Source of the DNA: a bacterium
Lineage (GTDB): Bacteria > JAHJDO01
Assembly: GCA_043824255.1 (NCBI GenBank)
Contig: JBDRTG010000040.1
Coordinates: 1 to 64,000, forward strand
Reading direction: 5' to 3'
DNA: 64,000 bases
A program made the position numbers. Every line of letters starts with the position of its first letter. Position 1 is the first letter of the stretch. Shown here piece after piece: positions 42,001-48,000 of this stretch.

Positions 42001-45000
42001 ATTTATCCCATTTGCTTTCATGGCAGTTATTTCATTGTCAGAAGAGAGCCTGCCAATAGAAGTAAGAGTAGCCACCAGTATTGCCATTGGTAAGGTGTAG
42101 GTCAGGATAAAAGGGAGAAGATATACAACTAGTTTTAAGACGCTAAGCACACTAATTCGCTCTTTAACCAGCATATTTGCCAGTCTAAACATGTTTCCAA
42201 GAAATAGAATAAATGTAAAGACGCACAGGCTTGAGAAGAAAGGGTCTATAAATTCTCTTAGGATATAGCGCGTTAATATTCGCATAGAAAAAATAGGGGT
42301 GTTATCTTGCTGCGCCCATTAAGCCAACAAGGTATTTGAGATCCTGGTCATTATATTCTATTTTTACACCTGCTATAAATGATGGTCTGTCCAGAATATC
42401 TTCTGCTCCAGCAACTATATAGTAGCTTTTATCTTCCCATATTTTATAGCTCAGATTTGTTCTAAGAAAGAATGGAGAGCTGTAAACAGCACTATGCCCT
42501 TCAACTGTAATGCTGGTTTTTTTATCAGGAAGTATATAGTCTGCTCCCAGTCCTACGCCTGAGTTTATCAGACCGCCCCTGACTGTTAGGTTATTGTCAA
42601 AGAATTTTAATGCAAGCTGTACGTCATATTCAATTTTATATCTCTCCTCTTTTGAATTGCTTGTGCCCAGCTTGCTTGCTCCTACAAGGTAATATTTATC
42701 CTCAGCAGGTTCAATCCTTATATAACCTTTATTTCTAAAAGCTCCCTCTCTGGCAGAATATACACTTTCGTCTCCTAACCAAGTTTTCATTTCTCTCATT
42801 TTGCCCAGTACATCTTTTGCACCTTCAGAGGCAGCCTTTGCTGATTTCATGGTTTTTCTGGCGTCATTATACAACTCTTCGTCATAAATTAGTTTCCCAA
42901 CAGTGCCTTCTCCTTTATCAATTTTTTTTACAATTTTCTTAATTGTCTTAACTGTCTCTTTTACTTCTGTACCAACTTCTTGGAATTCATCCATGATTTT
43001 TTGTGCTTTATCAGACGTTTCCTTTGCAGACTTCATAAACTCAGAAGTATTCTTATAAAGTTCTTCGTCAGTTAAGAGTTTTCCTGCTGTTCCCTCTCCC
43101 TTTTCAATCTTTTCCACAAGCTTCCCAATACTATCTGATATTTCCCCGGCTTTAGTAAAGAGCTGATCCAGTTGATAGGAATCTTTACCATCAACAATAC
43201 TCCCGGGCTTTAGAACAAGGCTATCTGCGGTTCCCATTGTGATACCAACATATTTGCCCCCCATGAGGCTTACGTCATTAATGCTAAATATAGAGTTTTG
43301 CCTGAGTGTTGTTTCTTTTTTTATCCACAAAGAAACCTGTATTTTATTGTCTTTTATATCAAAGTCTTCAACGCGTCCTACTTTCATCCCGGCCAGTGTT
43401 ACTGTGTCTCCTTTTTTGAGTCCGCCTATCTGGCTAAAGTTAACTTTTATTATATATCCATTTTCAAATATTCTGATTTTCCCTACCCAAAAGGTTAGAG
43501 CCATAAGTAGCACAATGCCTACAAAAAATGCTATCCCGACCTTCTTTTCAATATTCAAAATATACCTCCGAATTTAATCTTCTTGTCATTTTATAGGACC
43601 CACATTACTTCCTGTAATAAACTGTTTAACAATGGGACTGTCCGTATTTTTAATTTCCTGAACAGTTCCCACCTGAATAATTACGCCATTATATAACATT
43701 GCTATGCGATCTGCAATCTGATATGTGCTAACTATATCATGAGTTATTACTATTGATGTAGTATTTAGTGTATTCTCAAGTTCTAAAATAAGTTTATTAA
43801 TAGAAGCTGCTCTAACTGGATCAAGTCCCGTTGTAGGTTCGTCATAGAGTATAATTTCCGGATCCATACTAATTGCTCTTGCAAGTCCAACTCTCTTTCT
43901 CATACCTCCACTCAAGTCAGCAGGTTTTAATCTTTGAGCACCGTCTAATCCAACTATCCCAAGCTTATTTTTGACTATTTTATCCATATCTTCTTCGCTC
44001 AGGTTTGTGTGCTCTTGCAATCCCAGTTTTACGTTTTCTTCAACAGTAAGAGAAGCAAGTAATGCAGCAGATTGAAAAAGCATGCCGAATTTTCTTCTGA
44101 TATTATCAAGTTCATTATCCGAAATTTTTGAAATATCAACTCCGTCCACCTCTACTATGCCAAAATCGGGTTTTATAAGACCAATTATATGTCTTAAAAG
44201 CACGGTCTTGCCACATCCGCTGCATCCAATAATAACAATTGTTTCTCCACGTCTAATTTCAAGATTAACGCCTTTTAATATCTTTTCATCTCCAAAACTT
44301 TTGTGTAGATCACTAATCTTAATTATTATTTCTTTAGTTTTTACAAATTCAATAATTCTTTGCTTTGCGTTTTTCTCTATTTGCGCAAATTCCAGGCCGG
44401 TTTCATAGTATTTTTCTCCACTTGAAATCACCATTGTTCTCTGCCGTTTCACAATACCACTTGCAGATATTTCTTCTTTACTACTGTCAGGAAGGGAGAA
44501 CCTTAAATGTATCAGAGAATTAGTTTTTATCTGTTTTTTAGTCTTAAAACAGATGCCTCCACCGCTTAGATCTTTAGATTTTCTTTCTTCTTGGTGTGCA
44601 AAGGCTGTATGTTCAGGAAGGTCAGTGCTTATTAATACATTTATTTCAATTGGCAAGCGAGAATATCTTCTGCGTTCATGAAAACTAATTTTTTCATCTA
44701 GCTTGTCTATTTCTATCATTTTATTAGCTCTTTTGAAAAAACATTCTGGTTAAGAAGTAATCAAACACTATGATCAATAGAAACGAAATAACAACAGAGG
44801 CAGTAGTTGATTTACCCACACCTTCGGCTCCACCTCTGGTTCTAAATCCCTGATAACATGATATTATTGAGACAACTATGCCAAAGACAAATGCCTTTAC
44901 TAATCCGCTATATACGTCCTTTATTGTTAAGAAGTTTTTAATGCTGTCTAGGTATGTACTGGTGTCTACGCCTATCTGAAATTTTGATACAATAAATCCT

Positions 45001-48000
45001 CCTGCCATGCCTACACAATCCGAGTATATAACCAGAATGGGAAGCATAATTATGCATGCCAGAAATCTTGGCATTACCAGGTATCTGATAGGGTTTATTG
45101 CCAGTGTTTTAAGCGCGTCTATCTCCTCAGACACCTGCATTGTTCCAAGTTCTGCTGTCATTGATGCTCCGACTCTTCCTGCAACTATAAGTCCGGTAAG
45201 CACAGGACCCATTTCTCTGCACATGGATGCTGATACTATTGATCCTATCAGGTGCTGGATATGATATTTTGAAAGTTCAGTTCCTGTCTGAAGTGCGAGC
45301 ACCATTCCTGTAAAAATTGACATTAAGGATGTGATAGGAAGCGTATAAACGCCAATTTCTAGCATTTGTTTTGTAATAGGTTTTAGATTTTTAAATGCTG
45401 ATTTACACCAATATACGGTTTTTGCCAGTAATATTAAGACTTCCCCTGTATAATCCAGAGCGTCTGCAATTCTGCCATATATACTTTGCTTCATCACATT
45501 AACTTAAAATTTACAATTAAAAATTCAAAACTTATTTGGTACGCCTGGCCCGATTCGAACGGGCGACCTTCAGATTCGAAGTCTGCCGCTCTATCCAGCT
45601 GAGCTACAGGCGCGGGTTGGGGTGAGTGACGGGAGTCGAACCCGCGACTTCCAGAACCACAATCTGGCGCTCTAACCAACTGAGCTACACCCACCACGAT
45701 GCTGAATAATACTAATATATAGGGTTGCAAAAAGCAAGAGTATTAATTTGGTGTCAGTGAAGCTACATTTTGGATTTCGCCTCAATTGCAAATTTTGTTC
45801 CTGGATAATCAGTGGTTATTTGTTTGTAAAGTTTATCTGCTTTTGAGAAATTTCCTTTAGCTCTGTAGCAATGAGCAAGGAATAATTTGGCTTCTGGGAG
45901 TATTGTGCTTTCAGGATTGATTTTTATCAACATATTTAGCTCTTTTATTGCTTCTGAATAGCATTGCGTATAGTAATAACACTCAGCTTTATATAACGAA
46001 CTATATCCTAGTTTACTCAGAGGATACTGATCTTCCCATTTTTTTATTTTTTCCATAGCATCATTGATCTTTTTTCTTTTTATATAGTTTGAGATTGTAT
46101 GCATATAGTAACCTTGCATATAAATATCTTTTTTGCCGGATGCACTAATGTAGTATTTAGCTGCATTATTAATGTCACCCAGAGCCTTGTAGGAATCTCC
46201 AAGATTAATGAGAATTTGTTTTATCTCCTCATTTTTTTTATTTTCATATTCTTTCAGGATATTTTTATATTCAATAATAGCTTTGTCATAGTTTTTAAAG
46301 TCAAAGGCTACTATATCTGCCATTTTCCACCTTGCAAGTAAAACTATATTTTTCTCATTAGAAATGTGTAAAACTTTTTTATATGTTTCAAAAGCTTGTT
46401 CGGGATTTTTTTTGCTGTTTTTGTAAAAGTCACCCAAGATTATAAACACTTTGGCAATTTGAATTGGATCCAGGCTGCTAAACTGTTCTAGAAACAAGTT
46501 ACATGCCTTAGCAGTAAGGGGATCCTCTCTGACTTGCAAAAAGAAGTTTATGCTTGCCATGAGTGTTTTTGGAGAATCACATTTATTTAAATATTCTGAG
46601 ATAATCTTAGTATATTTTCTAGAGCGGTTTTTATAGTCTTCGTCCTTATTAAAAAAAACATCCATGGTTCTTATATTTTGGCTGGTAGTGTCTGATATGT
46701 CTTTTTCTATTGACTGAACCTCCTTAGCTGGGAATAAACATGTTCCATTTGGGATTTCAATTTCAAGAGCATGAGAGATACTTTTAATTTGTCCTCTGAT
46801 TTCTCTAGCATCTTTAAGAATTACTTTATCTGCTATTATTTTTAGTTTAACTTTATATTCTCCAGGTTGAAGGTAGACATGTAGAGGATTTGTCTTTTTA
46901 CTTGTTGTTCCGTCTCCAAAGTCCCAGATGCAGAGACCTCCAAGTTTTTGATCTCCTGATAGATTATAGAATTGCAAGCATGAGTAAATATTTTTATCTA
47001 TTTTATAATTGCTTATTTGCTCCCATGTAAAGTCAGCCGCTATAGGATTATCATACTTCTCAAAGTTTGTTACTTTAGTATGAATGGGAGATAAAAACGC
47101 TTGCGCAGGTATAAGCTTAAAGTATTTATCCTCAGGCTTCTTCCATCCTGCTACAGCGGTGGTAACACCGCTGAATTGAGTATGATAATAGTCAATCTTG
47201 TGTATACCCGCCTTAAGATGAATTTTCCCTCCGTATTTACCATAGACTCCCTCAGATGCTCCATGACCTCCAGGCCACTGTGTAACAAGTCTATTGTCTA
47301 TGAATAAGAAAGAGGCATCATCAGAAGCGGTTGCAAACCAGTACAGGCCTGTTTGGGCGCAGTATATATGTCCGCTATAGATACTAATAAATCTTTCAGA
47401 TGTACCAAATAGATTGTAGCCCTGAAAAATATTAGGAACATATCCTTTCCCATATATCTGTTCATTCCTATCTAGTAGTCTTTTCATTTGGTGCCAATTC
47501 TTGCAGTATCCTGAGCCAAGTTTTCTGGTTTCCAGTAAAAGTCCTGTATATAAAGGATTCCAGTTATAGTTCGCAGGTTGTGCATTTGGATTATTGAAGT
47601 AAATATAGTAGTTTTCAAAACTGATTTTAGCATCAAATATGATCTTTGTCTTGCCCAGTGGGTCACAATGTATCAATTTATGCGACACAATATTGCCCAA
47701 ATTATCTATTACTCTTATGTCAGAACCATTATCCTTTATAAGACCACCAGTAGTAAAGGTTGTGTATACTATGCCAGAAGGTTGTTGTGTCTTTTCCCAT
47801 AAAAGCGGGTAAACAGTCTTTCTGCATTTAAAATCAGAATTCCACCATTTAATATTAGAAGAAGAGTATGCAGAGAGCAGTGAAGCGAGAGGATGGAAAA
47901 TGGAGAAGCAAAGAGTTAATAATGCAAAAATAATAGATTTATGTTTCATGTTGCTATTCGAATACTAAATATCCAAATCTTTCGGGTACATGAAATGATA

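Follow-up and report, generated by a model that had tools for sequence, protein, structure and literature searches.

A PilZ domain fused to the MlaF-type ATPase of a minimal MlaEFD lipid transporter suggests direct c-di-GMP input to membrane-lipid traffic in one uncultured bacterial genus

We found that the ATPase of an Mla-type lipid transporter, encoded in a 64,000-nucleotide stretch of bacterial DNA (contig JBDRTG010000040.1 of assembly GCA_043824255.1; here, the window), carries an N-terminal PilZ domain joined by only a few residues to a complete ABC ATPase of the MlaF/MceG type. This suggests that c-di-GMP directly tunes membrane-lipid traffic in the host genus, a group of uncultured bacteria of groundwater and sediment. 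Direct control of the MlaF ATPase by c-di-GMP through its PilZ domain is the best reading of the locus and, in our judgment, a reasonably probable one, supported by the domain architecture, the intact binding motifs, selection on the domain, its place in the operon, and a c-di-GMP network in the same genome. The regulation of phospholipid traffic between the two bacterial membranes is poorly understood, and a transporter whose motor has a sensor domain built in offers a concrete, testable case. The trait, known from sequence, belongs to one uncultured genus, but the system is a practical one: three proteins, a commercially available candidate ligand, ligand-contact residues that can be mutated, and a natural control allele that lacks PilZ.

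The fusion gene, pilZ::mlaF, lies on the minus strand in a tightly packed operon with the order mlaE-pilZ::mlaF-mlaD-lptF-lptG (Table 1), in which intergenic gaps measure 4 bases between mlaE and pilZ::mlaF, 27 bases between pilZ::mlaF and mlaD, and 16 bases between mlaD and lptF. An earlier survey of this genome had reported that the ATPase gene between mlaD and mlaE carries an N-terminal PilZ domain, and Pfam again placed PilZ at residues 15-126 and ABC_tran at residues 148-297 (E 3.7e-32). The mlaE gene starts with GTG; an ATG one codon further in would move the start to 45494, the position given in the survey. The convergent neighbor of lptG, by sequence a diguanylate cyclase, has an intact GGEEF and, in our alignment, no RxxD I-site; its adjacency to the operon is kept in five of six related loci. 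RNA-library contigs identical to the window cover the operon and span both the mlaE/mlaF and mlaF/mlaD junctions, which is weak evidence because DNA may occur in such libraries.

Table 1. The pilZ::mlaF operon, its domains and motifs, and the convergent neighboring gene, in window coordinates.
Feature	Position	Strand	Basis
mlaE, MCE-type ABC transporter permease, 257 aa	44724..45497	-	PF02405 1.1e-84; TIGR00056 269.6 bits against a cut-off of 212.2
pilZ::mlaF, 377 aa; ATG 4 bases past the mlaE stop	43586..44719	-	ORF, Pfam, NCBIfam
PilZ domain, residues 15-126	44342..44677	-	PF07238 42.7 bits against a cut-off of 22.5
RxxxR motif, R17-R-Y-S-R21, with R16 just before	44657..44671	-	alignment (n=18)
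[D/N]hSxxG motif, D50-L-S52-G-G-G55	44555..44572	-	alignment (n=18)
MlaF/MceG-type nucleotide-binding domain (NBD), residues 131-377	43589..44329	-	Pfam, NCBIfam, alignment, Foldseek, phmmer
long mlaD, 418 aa	42302..43558	-	PF02470 at residues 33-109, 4.7e-17; AF2 model
lptF	41197..42285	-	PF03739 2.9e-77; best NCBIfam match TIGR04407
lptG, last gene of the operon	40101..41186	-	PF03739 3.5e-70; best NCBIfam match TIGR04408
membrane-anchored GAF-GGDEF diguanylate cyclase (by sequence), convergent neighbor	38994..40097	+	GGDEF 2.6e-50, GAF 1.5e-14

To judge by its sequence, the ATPase is a member of the MlaF family, but not an E. coli-type equivalog: its best NCBIfam match is the MlaF equivalog NF008809 (residues 128-376, 4.4e-63), at 213.1 bits and below the cut-off of 441. 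The ATPase motifs are complete and invariant (Walker A GCSGCGKT, Q216, LSGGM at 269-273, Walker B ILYDEP with E294, and H327). Foldseek matched the NBD model best to MceG (8fed) and MlaF (6xbd, 7ch8, 6z5u, and 7d06), with an rmsd of 1.1-1.4 over about 246 columns and 39-45% identity; phmmer against the PDB gave E-values of 1e-50 to 1e-61 for MlaF and MceG, and aligned fusion residues 133-376 to residues 9-252 of the 269 in E. coli MlaF. Fold and motifs are the same as those of MlaF from the MlaFEDB systems of E. coli, A. baumannii, and P. aeruginosa and of MceG from Mce1 of M. smegmatis, and here too the gene lies between or beside those for MlaE and MlaD. What the fusion adds is PilZ, about 130 residues at the N terminus; what it lacks relative to E. 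coli MlaF is the last ~16 residues of the C-terminal tail, query residue 376 aligning to E. coli residue 252.

The PilZ match (PF07238, E 7.6e-11) covers profile positions 1-100 of 102, and a profile search of the window's own genome recovered the domain at the same place with 45.1 bits. Both c-di-GMP motifs are intact, as the survey had claimed, RRYSR being residues 17-21 and DLSGGG residues 50-55: all 18 aligned sequences share R16, R17, R21, D50, S52, and G55, whereas L or I occupies position 51 and the x positions (53 and 54) are variable. This invariance carries limited weight because the family is shallow (81-96% identity). RxxxR and the refined motif [D/N]hSxxG, defined in a review preprint (10.1101/814665, available text), are also those of the canonical PilZ receptors BcsA, Alg44, and YcgR. 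An AF2 model predicts five strand elements, at residues 25-30, 56-60, 69-75, 83-97 (a long one), and 103-113, then a C-terminal helix at 118-127, against the six-stranded beta-barrel and single long helix of the canonical domain; this predicted order of strands followed by one helix agrees with the PilZ core as described in the available text of that preprint, at a block-mean pLDDT of only 55-77 and with residues 30-53 below 50. Sequence and profile searches of the PilZ part against solved structures retrieved no PilZ structure. Median dN/dS over 36 pairs from nine genomes is 0.30 for residues 15-126, three times the NBD value of 0.09, and indicates purifying selection on the PilZ part. Profile searches of the same genome (87% complete) yielded 13 PilZ, 5 GGDEF, and 2 HD-GYP-type (HD_5) matches, domain content that amounts to a c-di-GMP network. 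We infer that the canonical PilZ domain of the fusion probably binds c-di-GMP.

The fusion is present in all nine species genomes of the lineage in our genome library, which make up one family and one genus, each time as one copy with an unbroken ORF; the ORF is likewise intact in five of five close metagenome loci. A tree of NBDs, in which the fusions form one clade with support of 100/100, points to a single origin. The survey had described the fusion as confined to a candidate phylum: every genome of that group in the library does carry it, but the “phylum” consists of nine species of one genus, and the fusion arose there once. Among the best 120 of 8000 scored homologs we reproduced the survey's table, with 17 clusters (374-385 aa, 81-96% identity) that all combine PF07238 and PF00005, followed by relatives of 248-257 aa that are 61-67% identical across the ATPase part. 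Forms of about 530-560 aa, to which the survey had ascribed other N-terminal extensions, turned out instead to hold two ATPases in tandem, each of the four scanned (533-581 aa) having two stretches of ABC_tran. The searches made turned up no further fusion of PilZ to an ABC protein. The nearest unfused relatives, examined at 21 loci, have the same mlaE-mlaF-mlaD order wherever both flanks were scanned (two contigs end before mlaF, with mlaD only), and none of the 59 neighboring ORFs scanned there matched PilZ.

This ATPase serves a minimal MlaEFD transporter, in which MlaD is long. The genome has a single MCE gene and gave no matches to MlaA (PF04333), MlaC (PF05494), or MlaB/STAS_2 (PF13466); as the genome is 87% complete, this falls short of proof of absence. 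Relative to the six-component E. coli-type Mla (MlaA-F), these three proteins are thus unmatched and the MlaF tail is truncated. MlaD has a transmembrane helix at residues 3-25, followed by the MCE domain at 34-123. Residues 127-255 are helical, and 10 strands are predicted in the all-beta domain that lies at the C-terminal end (258-404). Its AF2 model has pLDDT values of 82-91 in the MCE blocks, 30-39 in the helices, and mostly 74-88 in the beta domain, where block 301-310 is at 56. Foldseek matched the MCE part alone, to Mce1/MlaD structures, and homologs carry the precomputed families PF02470+PF28544+PF27164. Veillonella parvula has a minimal MlaEFD whose long MlaD spans the envelope, as described in the available text of PMC10665443. 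In both systems mlaE, mlaF, and mlaD stand alone, MlaA and MlaC not being found here; the modeled MlaD here also has a long helical region and a beta-rich C-terminal domain, of which the barrel fold and outer-membrane location are putative; and the outer-membrane biogenesis neighborhood is alike, lptFG belonging to the present operon. The present transporter is probably envelope-spanning. It differs from that of V. parvula in the PilZ sensor domain on its ATPase, and the words PilZ and c-di-GMP have no occurrence in the available text of PMC10665443.

We propose that the ATPase of a minimal MlaEFD lipid transporter acquired an N-terminal canonical PilZ domain, and that c-di-GMP would bind this domain at the R17xxxR21 loop and the D50-h-S52-x-x-G55 strand. 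In the AF2 model the last PilZ helix (118-127) leads almost at once to the ATPase domain, whose first strand is at residue 131, so a change in liganded PilZ would be expected to shift the seat of the domain on the NBD. Such a shift could change how the NBD dimer closes or how it couples to MlaE, and the rate of ATP turnover and the flow of lipid along the MlaD tunnel would in turn track the cellular c-di-GMP level. PilZ would thereby take the accessory-regulator niche filled in E. coli by MlaB (STAS) and the MlaF C-terminal tail, both apparently missing here. The same short connection bears on a different, unlikely role for a c-di-GMP-binding PilZ, that of an adaptor that recruits a partner or positions the Mla complex, for example near the membrane-bound GAF-GGDEF cyclase or the Lpt machinery, and leaves ATPase kinetics unchanged. 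PilZ proteins of the YcgR type act via protein contacts, and the intact motifs, the presence of lptF and lptG in the operon, and the conserved convergent GGDEF gene would all fit an adaptor; but the partner is hypothetical, adjacency inside a single genus is weak evidence, and the very short predicted link between helix 118-127 and strand 131 favors direct coupling to the NBD.

Direct control of the ATPase could be positive or negative, and a natural allele bears on its sign. In one close relative, a clean in-frame deletion has removed precisely the PilZ domain and left the ATPase intact. This allele occurs as two slightly different sequences, both with an intact NBD, and the terminal branch of the PilZ-less NBD (0.04) is not longer than the median for its relatives (0.038). 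Since the ATPase stays intact, PilZ is a dispensable add-on, unneeded for a working-looking ATPase, and for the same reason we lean slightly toward PilZ as a brake or tuner, the loss of which would leave a constitutive transporter, rather than an obligatory activator. The intact NBD and ordinary branch length also argue against a required structural role. Stabilization of the MlaF dimer or MlaFE complex by PilZ, in place of the missing MlaB and MlaF tail and regardless of c-di-GMP, whose binding would not matter or would in effect have been lost, would accord with the lack of a STAS_2 match in the genome, the truncated tail, and the joining of catalytically dead GGDEF domains to MlaF in other lineages. 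We regard it as improbable, as a purely structural role needs no invariant ligand-contacting positions, and here those positions are fixed while the x positions vary. That a gene for PilZ came to lie between mlaE and mlaF by a lineage-specific accident with few consequences, was tolerated, and is now being lost is very improbable: the restriction to one genus, the lack of PilZ among the 59 ORFs scanned beside unfused mla genes, the natural deletion, and the weaker constraint on PilZ than on the NBD agree with it, but the purifying selection, the invariant motifs, and an intact ORF in nine of nine genomes, the 17 protein clusters (among the best 120 of 8000 scored), and all five metagenome loci speak against it.

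In the literature searched, neither a PilZ-MlaF protein nor direct control of Mla by a second messenger is described, and we found no published post-translational signal on an Mla or MCE transporter. The survey's statement that no second-messenger control of Mla is known has to be narrowed to direct control, as an indirect link from c-di-GMP to MlaA through the sRNA ErsA has been published (PMC13613067, available text). The survey's tie to a sessile/motile switch goes beyond this evidence. Compared with BcsA, Alg44, and YcgR, the output here is an ABC transporter ATPase; “ABC,” “ATPase,” and “transporter” do not occur in the available main text of the preprint on PilZ motifs (10.1101/814665). 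A cyclic dinucleotide sensor fused to an ABC NBD is found in the OpuA/OpuCA osmolyte importers, in which ATPase-fused CBS domains bind c-di-AMP and regulate transport (PMC7673798, available text). Sensing is predicted in the present case, and OpuA differs in its messenger, in the C-terminal position and CBS type of its sensor, and in its cargo, a compatible solute rather than a lipid.

The PilZ fusion is not the only case in which a domain of the c-di-GMP toolkit is attached to MlaF within a true mla operon. In other phyla, of Desulfobacterota type, MlaF is fused to a degenerate, catalytically dead GGDEF domain; this domain is C-terminal, the operons encode a short MlaD together with MlaC and MlaA, and the origin of these fusions is independent of that of PilZ-MlaF. 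Taken together, the two architectures hint that c-di-GMP signaling and envelope lipid homeostasis are linked more widely than is known. A bolder and tentative possibility is that c-di-GMP acts directly and post-translationally on lipid transport between the membranes and that such control has arisen more than once, in PilZ-MlaF and through the I-site of dead GGDEF-MlaF proteins. If true, outer-membrane lipid homeostasis would join the core outputs of c-di-GMP beside exopolysaccharide secretion and motility. Ligand binding is doubtful for many members of the GGDEF group; RxxD is kept at the I-site position in three of five aligned MlaF-GGDEF representatives.

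The 377-residue product of pilZ::mlaF is a real fusion of a PilZ domain to an MlaF-type ATPase. In Pfam, residues 15-126 match PilZ with 42.7 bits (cut-off 22.5; E 7.6e-11) and residues 148-297 match ABC_tran (3.7e-32), and the gene lies between those for MlaE and MlaD, as the survey's finding had stated. It belongs to a run of five tightly packed minus-strand genes (mlaE, pilZ::mlaF, mlaD, lptF and lptG; see table) with gaps of 4, 27, 16 and 10 bases, the first of these separating the mlaE stop codon from the ATG of the fusion. The top NCBIfam match of the ATPase part was the MlaF equivalog (residues 128-376), and because its 213 bits fall below the cut-off of 441 we assign the ATPase to the MlaF family and not to the E. 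coli-type equivalog. Foldseek neighbours of the modelled ATPase were MceG (8fed) and MlaF (6xbd, 7ch8, 6z5u and 7d06), at rmsd 1.1-1.4 and 39-45% identity. That this MlaF also powers LptFG was ruled out, as a separate LptB scoring above cut-off is encoded elsewhere in the genome.

A promoter and terminator scan of 39800-46000 returned sites no commoner than in shuffled sequence. In a metatranscriptome library from the same study as the window's probable source sample, five contigs identical to the window fell on the operon, two of them bridging the mlaE/mlaF and mlaF/mlaD junctions. We take these as a hint of expression only, because such contigs reveal nothing of strand or level and RNA libraries can be contaminated with DNA. 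Operon parts lacking RNA-library contigs in run X3 are no sign of silence, and RNA run X22 and the small-share runs were left out of the reading of habitat and expression. Directly upstream of mlaE stand two large TPR proteins, the one carrying PA14 and PKD domains, the other a CBM9-like domain; both are kept in some related loci (L001, L003 and L004).

Features of the window and PilZ proteins encoded elsewhere in its genome (G000; C-numbers are contigs of that genome)
Feature	Coordinates	Strand	Evidence
1482-aa protein	30722-35170	+	C-terminal FtsX-like permease match and weak peptidase M28 match only
663-aa protein	35174-37165	+	no Pfam family
lptG	40101-41186	-	LptF_LptG Pfam match
lptF	41197-42285	-	LptF_LptG Pfam match
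mlaD	42302-43558	-	MlaD Pfam 4.7e-17
pilZ::mlaF, 377 aa	43586-44719	-	PilZ + ABC_tran, Pfam
mlaE	44724-45497	-	MlaE Pfam 1.1e-84
TPR protein	45763-47949	-	
TPR protein	47954-49624	-	
PilZ protein	C39:1106-2296		
PilZ protein	C43:45152-45994		
PilZ protein	C17:11836-12786		
PilZ protein	C29:56921-57571		
PilZ protein	C29:58919-59545		

Alignment of 18 sequences of the PilZ-MlaF family bore out the claim of intact c-di-GMP motifs, with both RxxxR and [D/N]hSxxG kept: R16, R17 and R21 are invariant, as are D50, S52 and G55, with either L or I at position 51 and variation at both "x" positions. The second of these fits the refined motif [D/N]hSxxG as worded in the available part of a PilZ review preprint (10.1101/814665). 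All ATPase motifs are likewise intact in the 18 sequences (Walker A, Q-loop, LSGGM, Walker B with E294, and H327). Alongside these motifs, a purely structural role for PilZ seems to us less likely than a ligand-binding one. The AlphaFold2 model of the fusion (mean pLDDT 81.3, pTM 0.78) was very confident in the ATPase part (block means 83-97) and moderate in the PilZ part (55-77); pLDDT fell below 50 at residues 1-8 and 30-53. The modelled PilZ consists of beta strands followed by a helix at 118-127, elements that agree with the described PilZ core, and the first ATPase strand starts at 131, leaving almost no link between the domains. When solved structures were searched with the PilZ part, by sequence and by profile, all matches were at chance level.

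How widely is the fusion distributed? The homologue table reported earlier was reproduced among the best 120 of 8000 scored proteins, comprising 17 clusters (374-385 aa; 81-96% identity) that have both PilZ and ABC_tran, followed by plain MlaF of 248-257 aa at 61-67% identity. The longer forms in that table (533-581 aa; P0021-P0031 and P0121-P0124), which had been read as MlaF with other N-terminal extensions, are instead tandem MlaF-MlaF proteins, named MlaF by some sources, and two ABC_tran stretches were present in 4/4 scanned. The fusion had also been described as confined to a candidate phylum; our searches found none elsewhere, but in the genome library this "phylum" is nine species genomes of one family and one genus, all nine of which carry one full-length copy (84-100% identity). 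When 1.84 billion cluster representatives were searched, the family's own representative, P0014, was the only one among the best 150 to align over residues 1-376. Thirty of these 150 were picked because they extend beyond the ATPase at either end, and Pfam detected PilZ in none of the 30, their N-terminal extensions being low-complexity or without a Pfam family. Two further variants were seen: P0250 (408 aa), whose MlaF-like ATPase is preceded by 160 structured-looking residues that have no Pfam match, and P0255 (361 aa), with Helicase_C and DUF1294 pieces beside an ABC domain, which may be a chimeric gene call.

With the PilZ part alone as query, a word-based search returned 18 proteins, all of the PilZ-MlaF family, and full-length loci made up 6 of 74 related loci in one-per-species genomes, all six being MAGs of the window's group; four apparent PilZ-region matches (L046, L048, L057 and L072) were ruled out as ORFs without a PilZ extension. 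Searched with a profile of the PilZ part, 62 of 301 genomes gave PilZ matches; outside the genus, only three of these matches lay in open frames of at least 340 aa, with room for an ATPase too. Seven frames were examined, namely these three, a further three of smaller size (289-325 aa) and one belonging to a member of the genus; they encode GGDEF-PilZ, HD-GYP-PilZ, double PilZ, single PilZ, PilZ-HD-GYP, PilZ-DUF2254 and FHA-PilZ, with ABC_tran in none of the seven. In an Atlas search the whole protein drew only plain MlaF clusters, and the PilZ part drew stand-alone PilZ clusters at no more than lead level (0.85). In the nearest unfused relatives, from Nitrospirota, Nitrospinota, Eisenbacteria, Firestonebacteria and others, every locus scanned on both flanks has the order mlaE-mlaF-mlaD, and dnaB or alr lies upstream at most loci. 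No PilZ was found among 59 neighbouring ORFs scanned from 21 of these loci, taken from 111 candidates in 28 loci after overlapping shadow frames and seven loci were dropped. In a careful ATPase-domain tree of 81 rows the 18 fused sequences form one clade with support 100/100, on a stem of 0.55 changes per column in a quick tree of the same rows. This single clade, the presence in every genus genome and the absence of finds elsewhere together point to a single origin, and we conclude from the sequences that the fusion arose once and is a genus-level trait; other PilZ-ABC fusions were absent among the matches listed, and more distant ones are possible.

Nature has also produced a PilZ-less allele. 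In a cold-seep DNA run that also holds PilZ-containing contigs, one contig joins position 44328 to 44692, skipping 363 bases (44329-44691, minus strand) that encode residues ~10-130, exactly the PilZ domain, with 4 bases shared at the joint. The corresponding protein, P0020 (262 aa), has the fusion's first eight residues and then the ATPase directly, at 91% identity to that of the window, and P0390, from a second source, is identical to it at 260 of 262 residues. In a quick tree P0020 falls inside the fused clade, and its terminal branch (0.04) is about as long as the median one (0.038). Given this nesting and the in-frame joint, we read the allele as a secondary loss of PilZ by clean in-frame deletion that left the ATPase intact; PilZ is thus, on the evidence of these alleles, a dispensable module. 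All five close loci recovered in a metagenome scan with the PilZ-less protein ("residues 1-256 matched") encode the full fusion of 377-382 aa. Median pairwise dN/dS (36 pairs from nine genomes of the lineage) was 0.30 for PilZ residues 15-126 and 0.09 for the ATPase domain, indicating purifying selection on PilZ that is looser than on the ATPase motor. Given this purifying selection we consider a merely tolerated accident a less likely account of the fusion, although the natural loss speaks for it.

The transporter itself looks pared down. The 2.02 Mb genome (87% complete) has a single MCE gene, and within it we found no match to MlaA, MlaC or STAS_2/MlaB. E. coli MlaF has about 16 more C-terminal residues, residue 376 of the window's protein aligning with residue 252 of 269. 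The MlaD model has a transmembrane helix at 3-25, an MCE domain at 34-123 (pLDDT 82-91), a low-confidence helical stretch at 127-255 and ten beta strands at 258-404 (block pLDDT mostly 74-88, one 56); Foldseek matched its MCE part only. A precomputed three-family architecture of MlaD is common to homologues in Syntrophales, Planctomycetota and Nitrospirota. The available text of a study of Veillonella parvula describes a minimal MlaEFD with a long, envelope-bridging MlaD, inferred to be widespread (PMC10665443), and the window's transporter fits this arrangement as described there, with a beta domain that is here predicted only.

We leave the survey's proposal that c-di-GMP gates phospholipid traffic in a softer form: on balance we think it probable that PilZ binds c-di-GMP and thereby tunes the motor, MlaF, in a minimal MlaEFD bridge. 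The domain would then take the regulatory place of MlaB and of the MlaF tail, both of which are missing. A role as an adaptor is less likely in our estimation. Tuning of the motor by bound c-di-GMP has a precedent for a cyclic dinucleotide in OpuA, where, in the part of the report available, c-di-AMP acts through a domain fused to the ABC ATPase (PMC7673798). The arrangement unites two familiar designs, the PilZ receptor fusion and the ABC ATPase that carries a domain for sensing a nucleotide, and is confined to one uncultured genus; it gains somewhat in interest from the natural PilZ-less allele, a ready control, and from independent MlaF-GGDEF fusions.

These were C-terminal GGDEF domains in 5 of the 30 extended representatives, all five with degenerate catalytic motifs and three with RxxD at the I-site position of the alignment. 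One MAG locus (L087:3017-7304) holds a complete operon (mlaE, mlaF::GGDEF, mlaD in a short form, and mlaC), and mlaA is encoded there on the other strand; the GGDEF of this locus is degenerate (GGKEF, with RKSD at the I-site position). Titles and abstracts in the literature searched, which covers few subscription journals, describe no PilZ-MlaF protein and no MlaF-GGDEF fusion. The same literature gave nothing for PilZ with an ABC transporter ATPase and c-di-GMP, and cellulose and capsule work only for PilZ, an ABC nucleotide-binding domain and c-di-GMP; the available text of the PilZ review preprint mentions no ABC, ATPase or transporter. The statement that no second-messenger control of Mla is known holds for direct control in this literature, but an indirect link is published: in P. 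aeruginosa, according to the accessible part of the report, high c-di-GMP relieves repression of MlaA by the sRNA ErsA, post-transcriptionally (PMC13613067).

The genome has 13 PilZ, 5 GGDEF and 2 HD-GYP-type matches, and a domain search found no EAL in it. Among its PilZ proteins, with partner domains assigned by sequence reading, one of 396 aa joins PilZ to a protein-kinase-like part, another (280 aa) resembles PTS EIIA at its N-terminus, a third (316 aa) ends in a flavodoxin-like tail, and two are YcgR-like; Pfam confirms an FHA-PilZ protein in a sister genome (G001:C118, L135:446-1447). A GAF-GGDEF cyclase gene with intact GGEEF is convergent to lptG and kept there in five of six related loci, an adjacency within one genus that is a weak indication of a functional link to the operon. 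The cumulative GC skew peaks (5.18) at window ~40000-42000, changing sign at the convergent GGDEF/lptG pair, where genes switch from the plus to the minus strand; the peak could be a replication terminus or mere gene-strand bias. The 1482-aa and 663-aa proteins (30722-37165) are followed by one that is PqqD-like, a short FtsX protein and an ABC ATPase; the set, which ends at the GAF-GGDEF gene, resembles a MacB/Lol-type module of an unusual kind.
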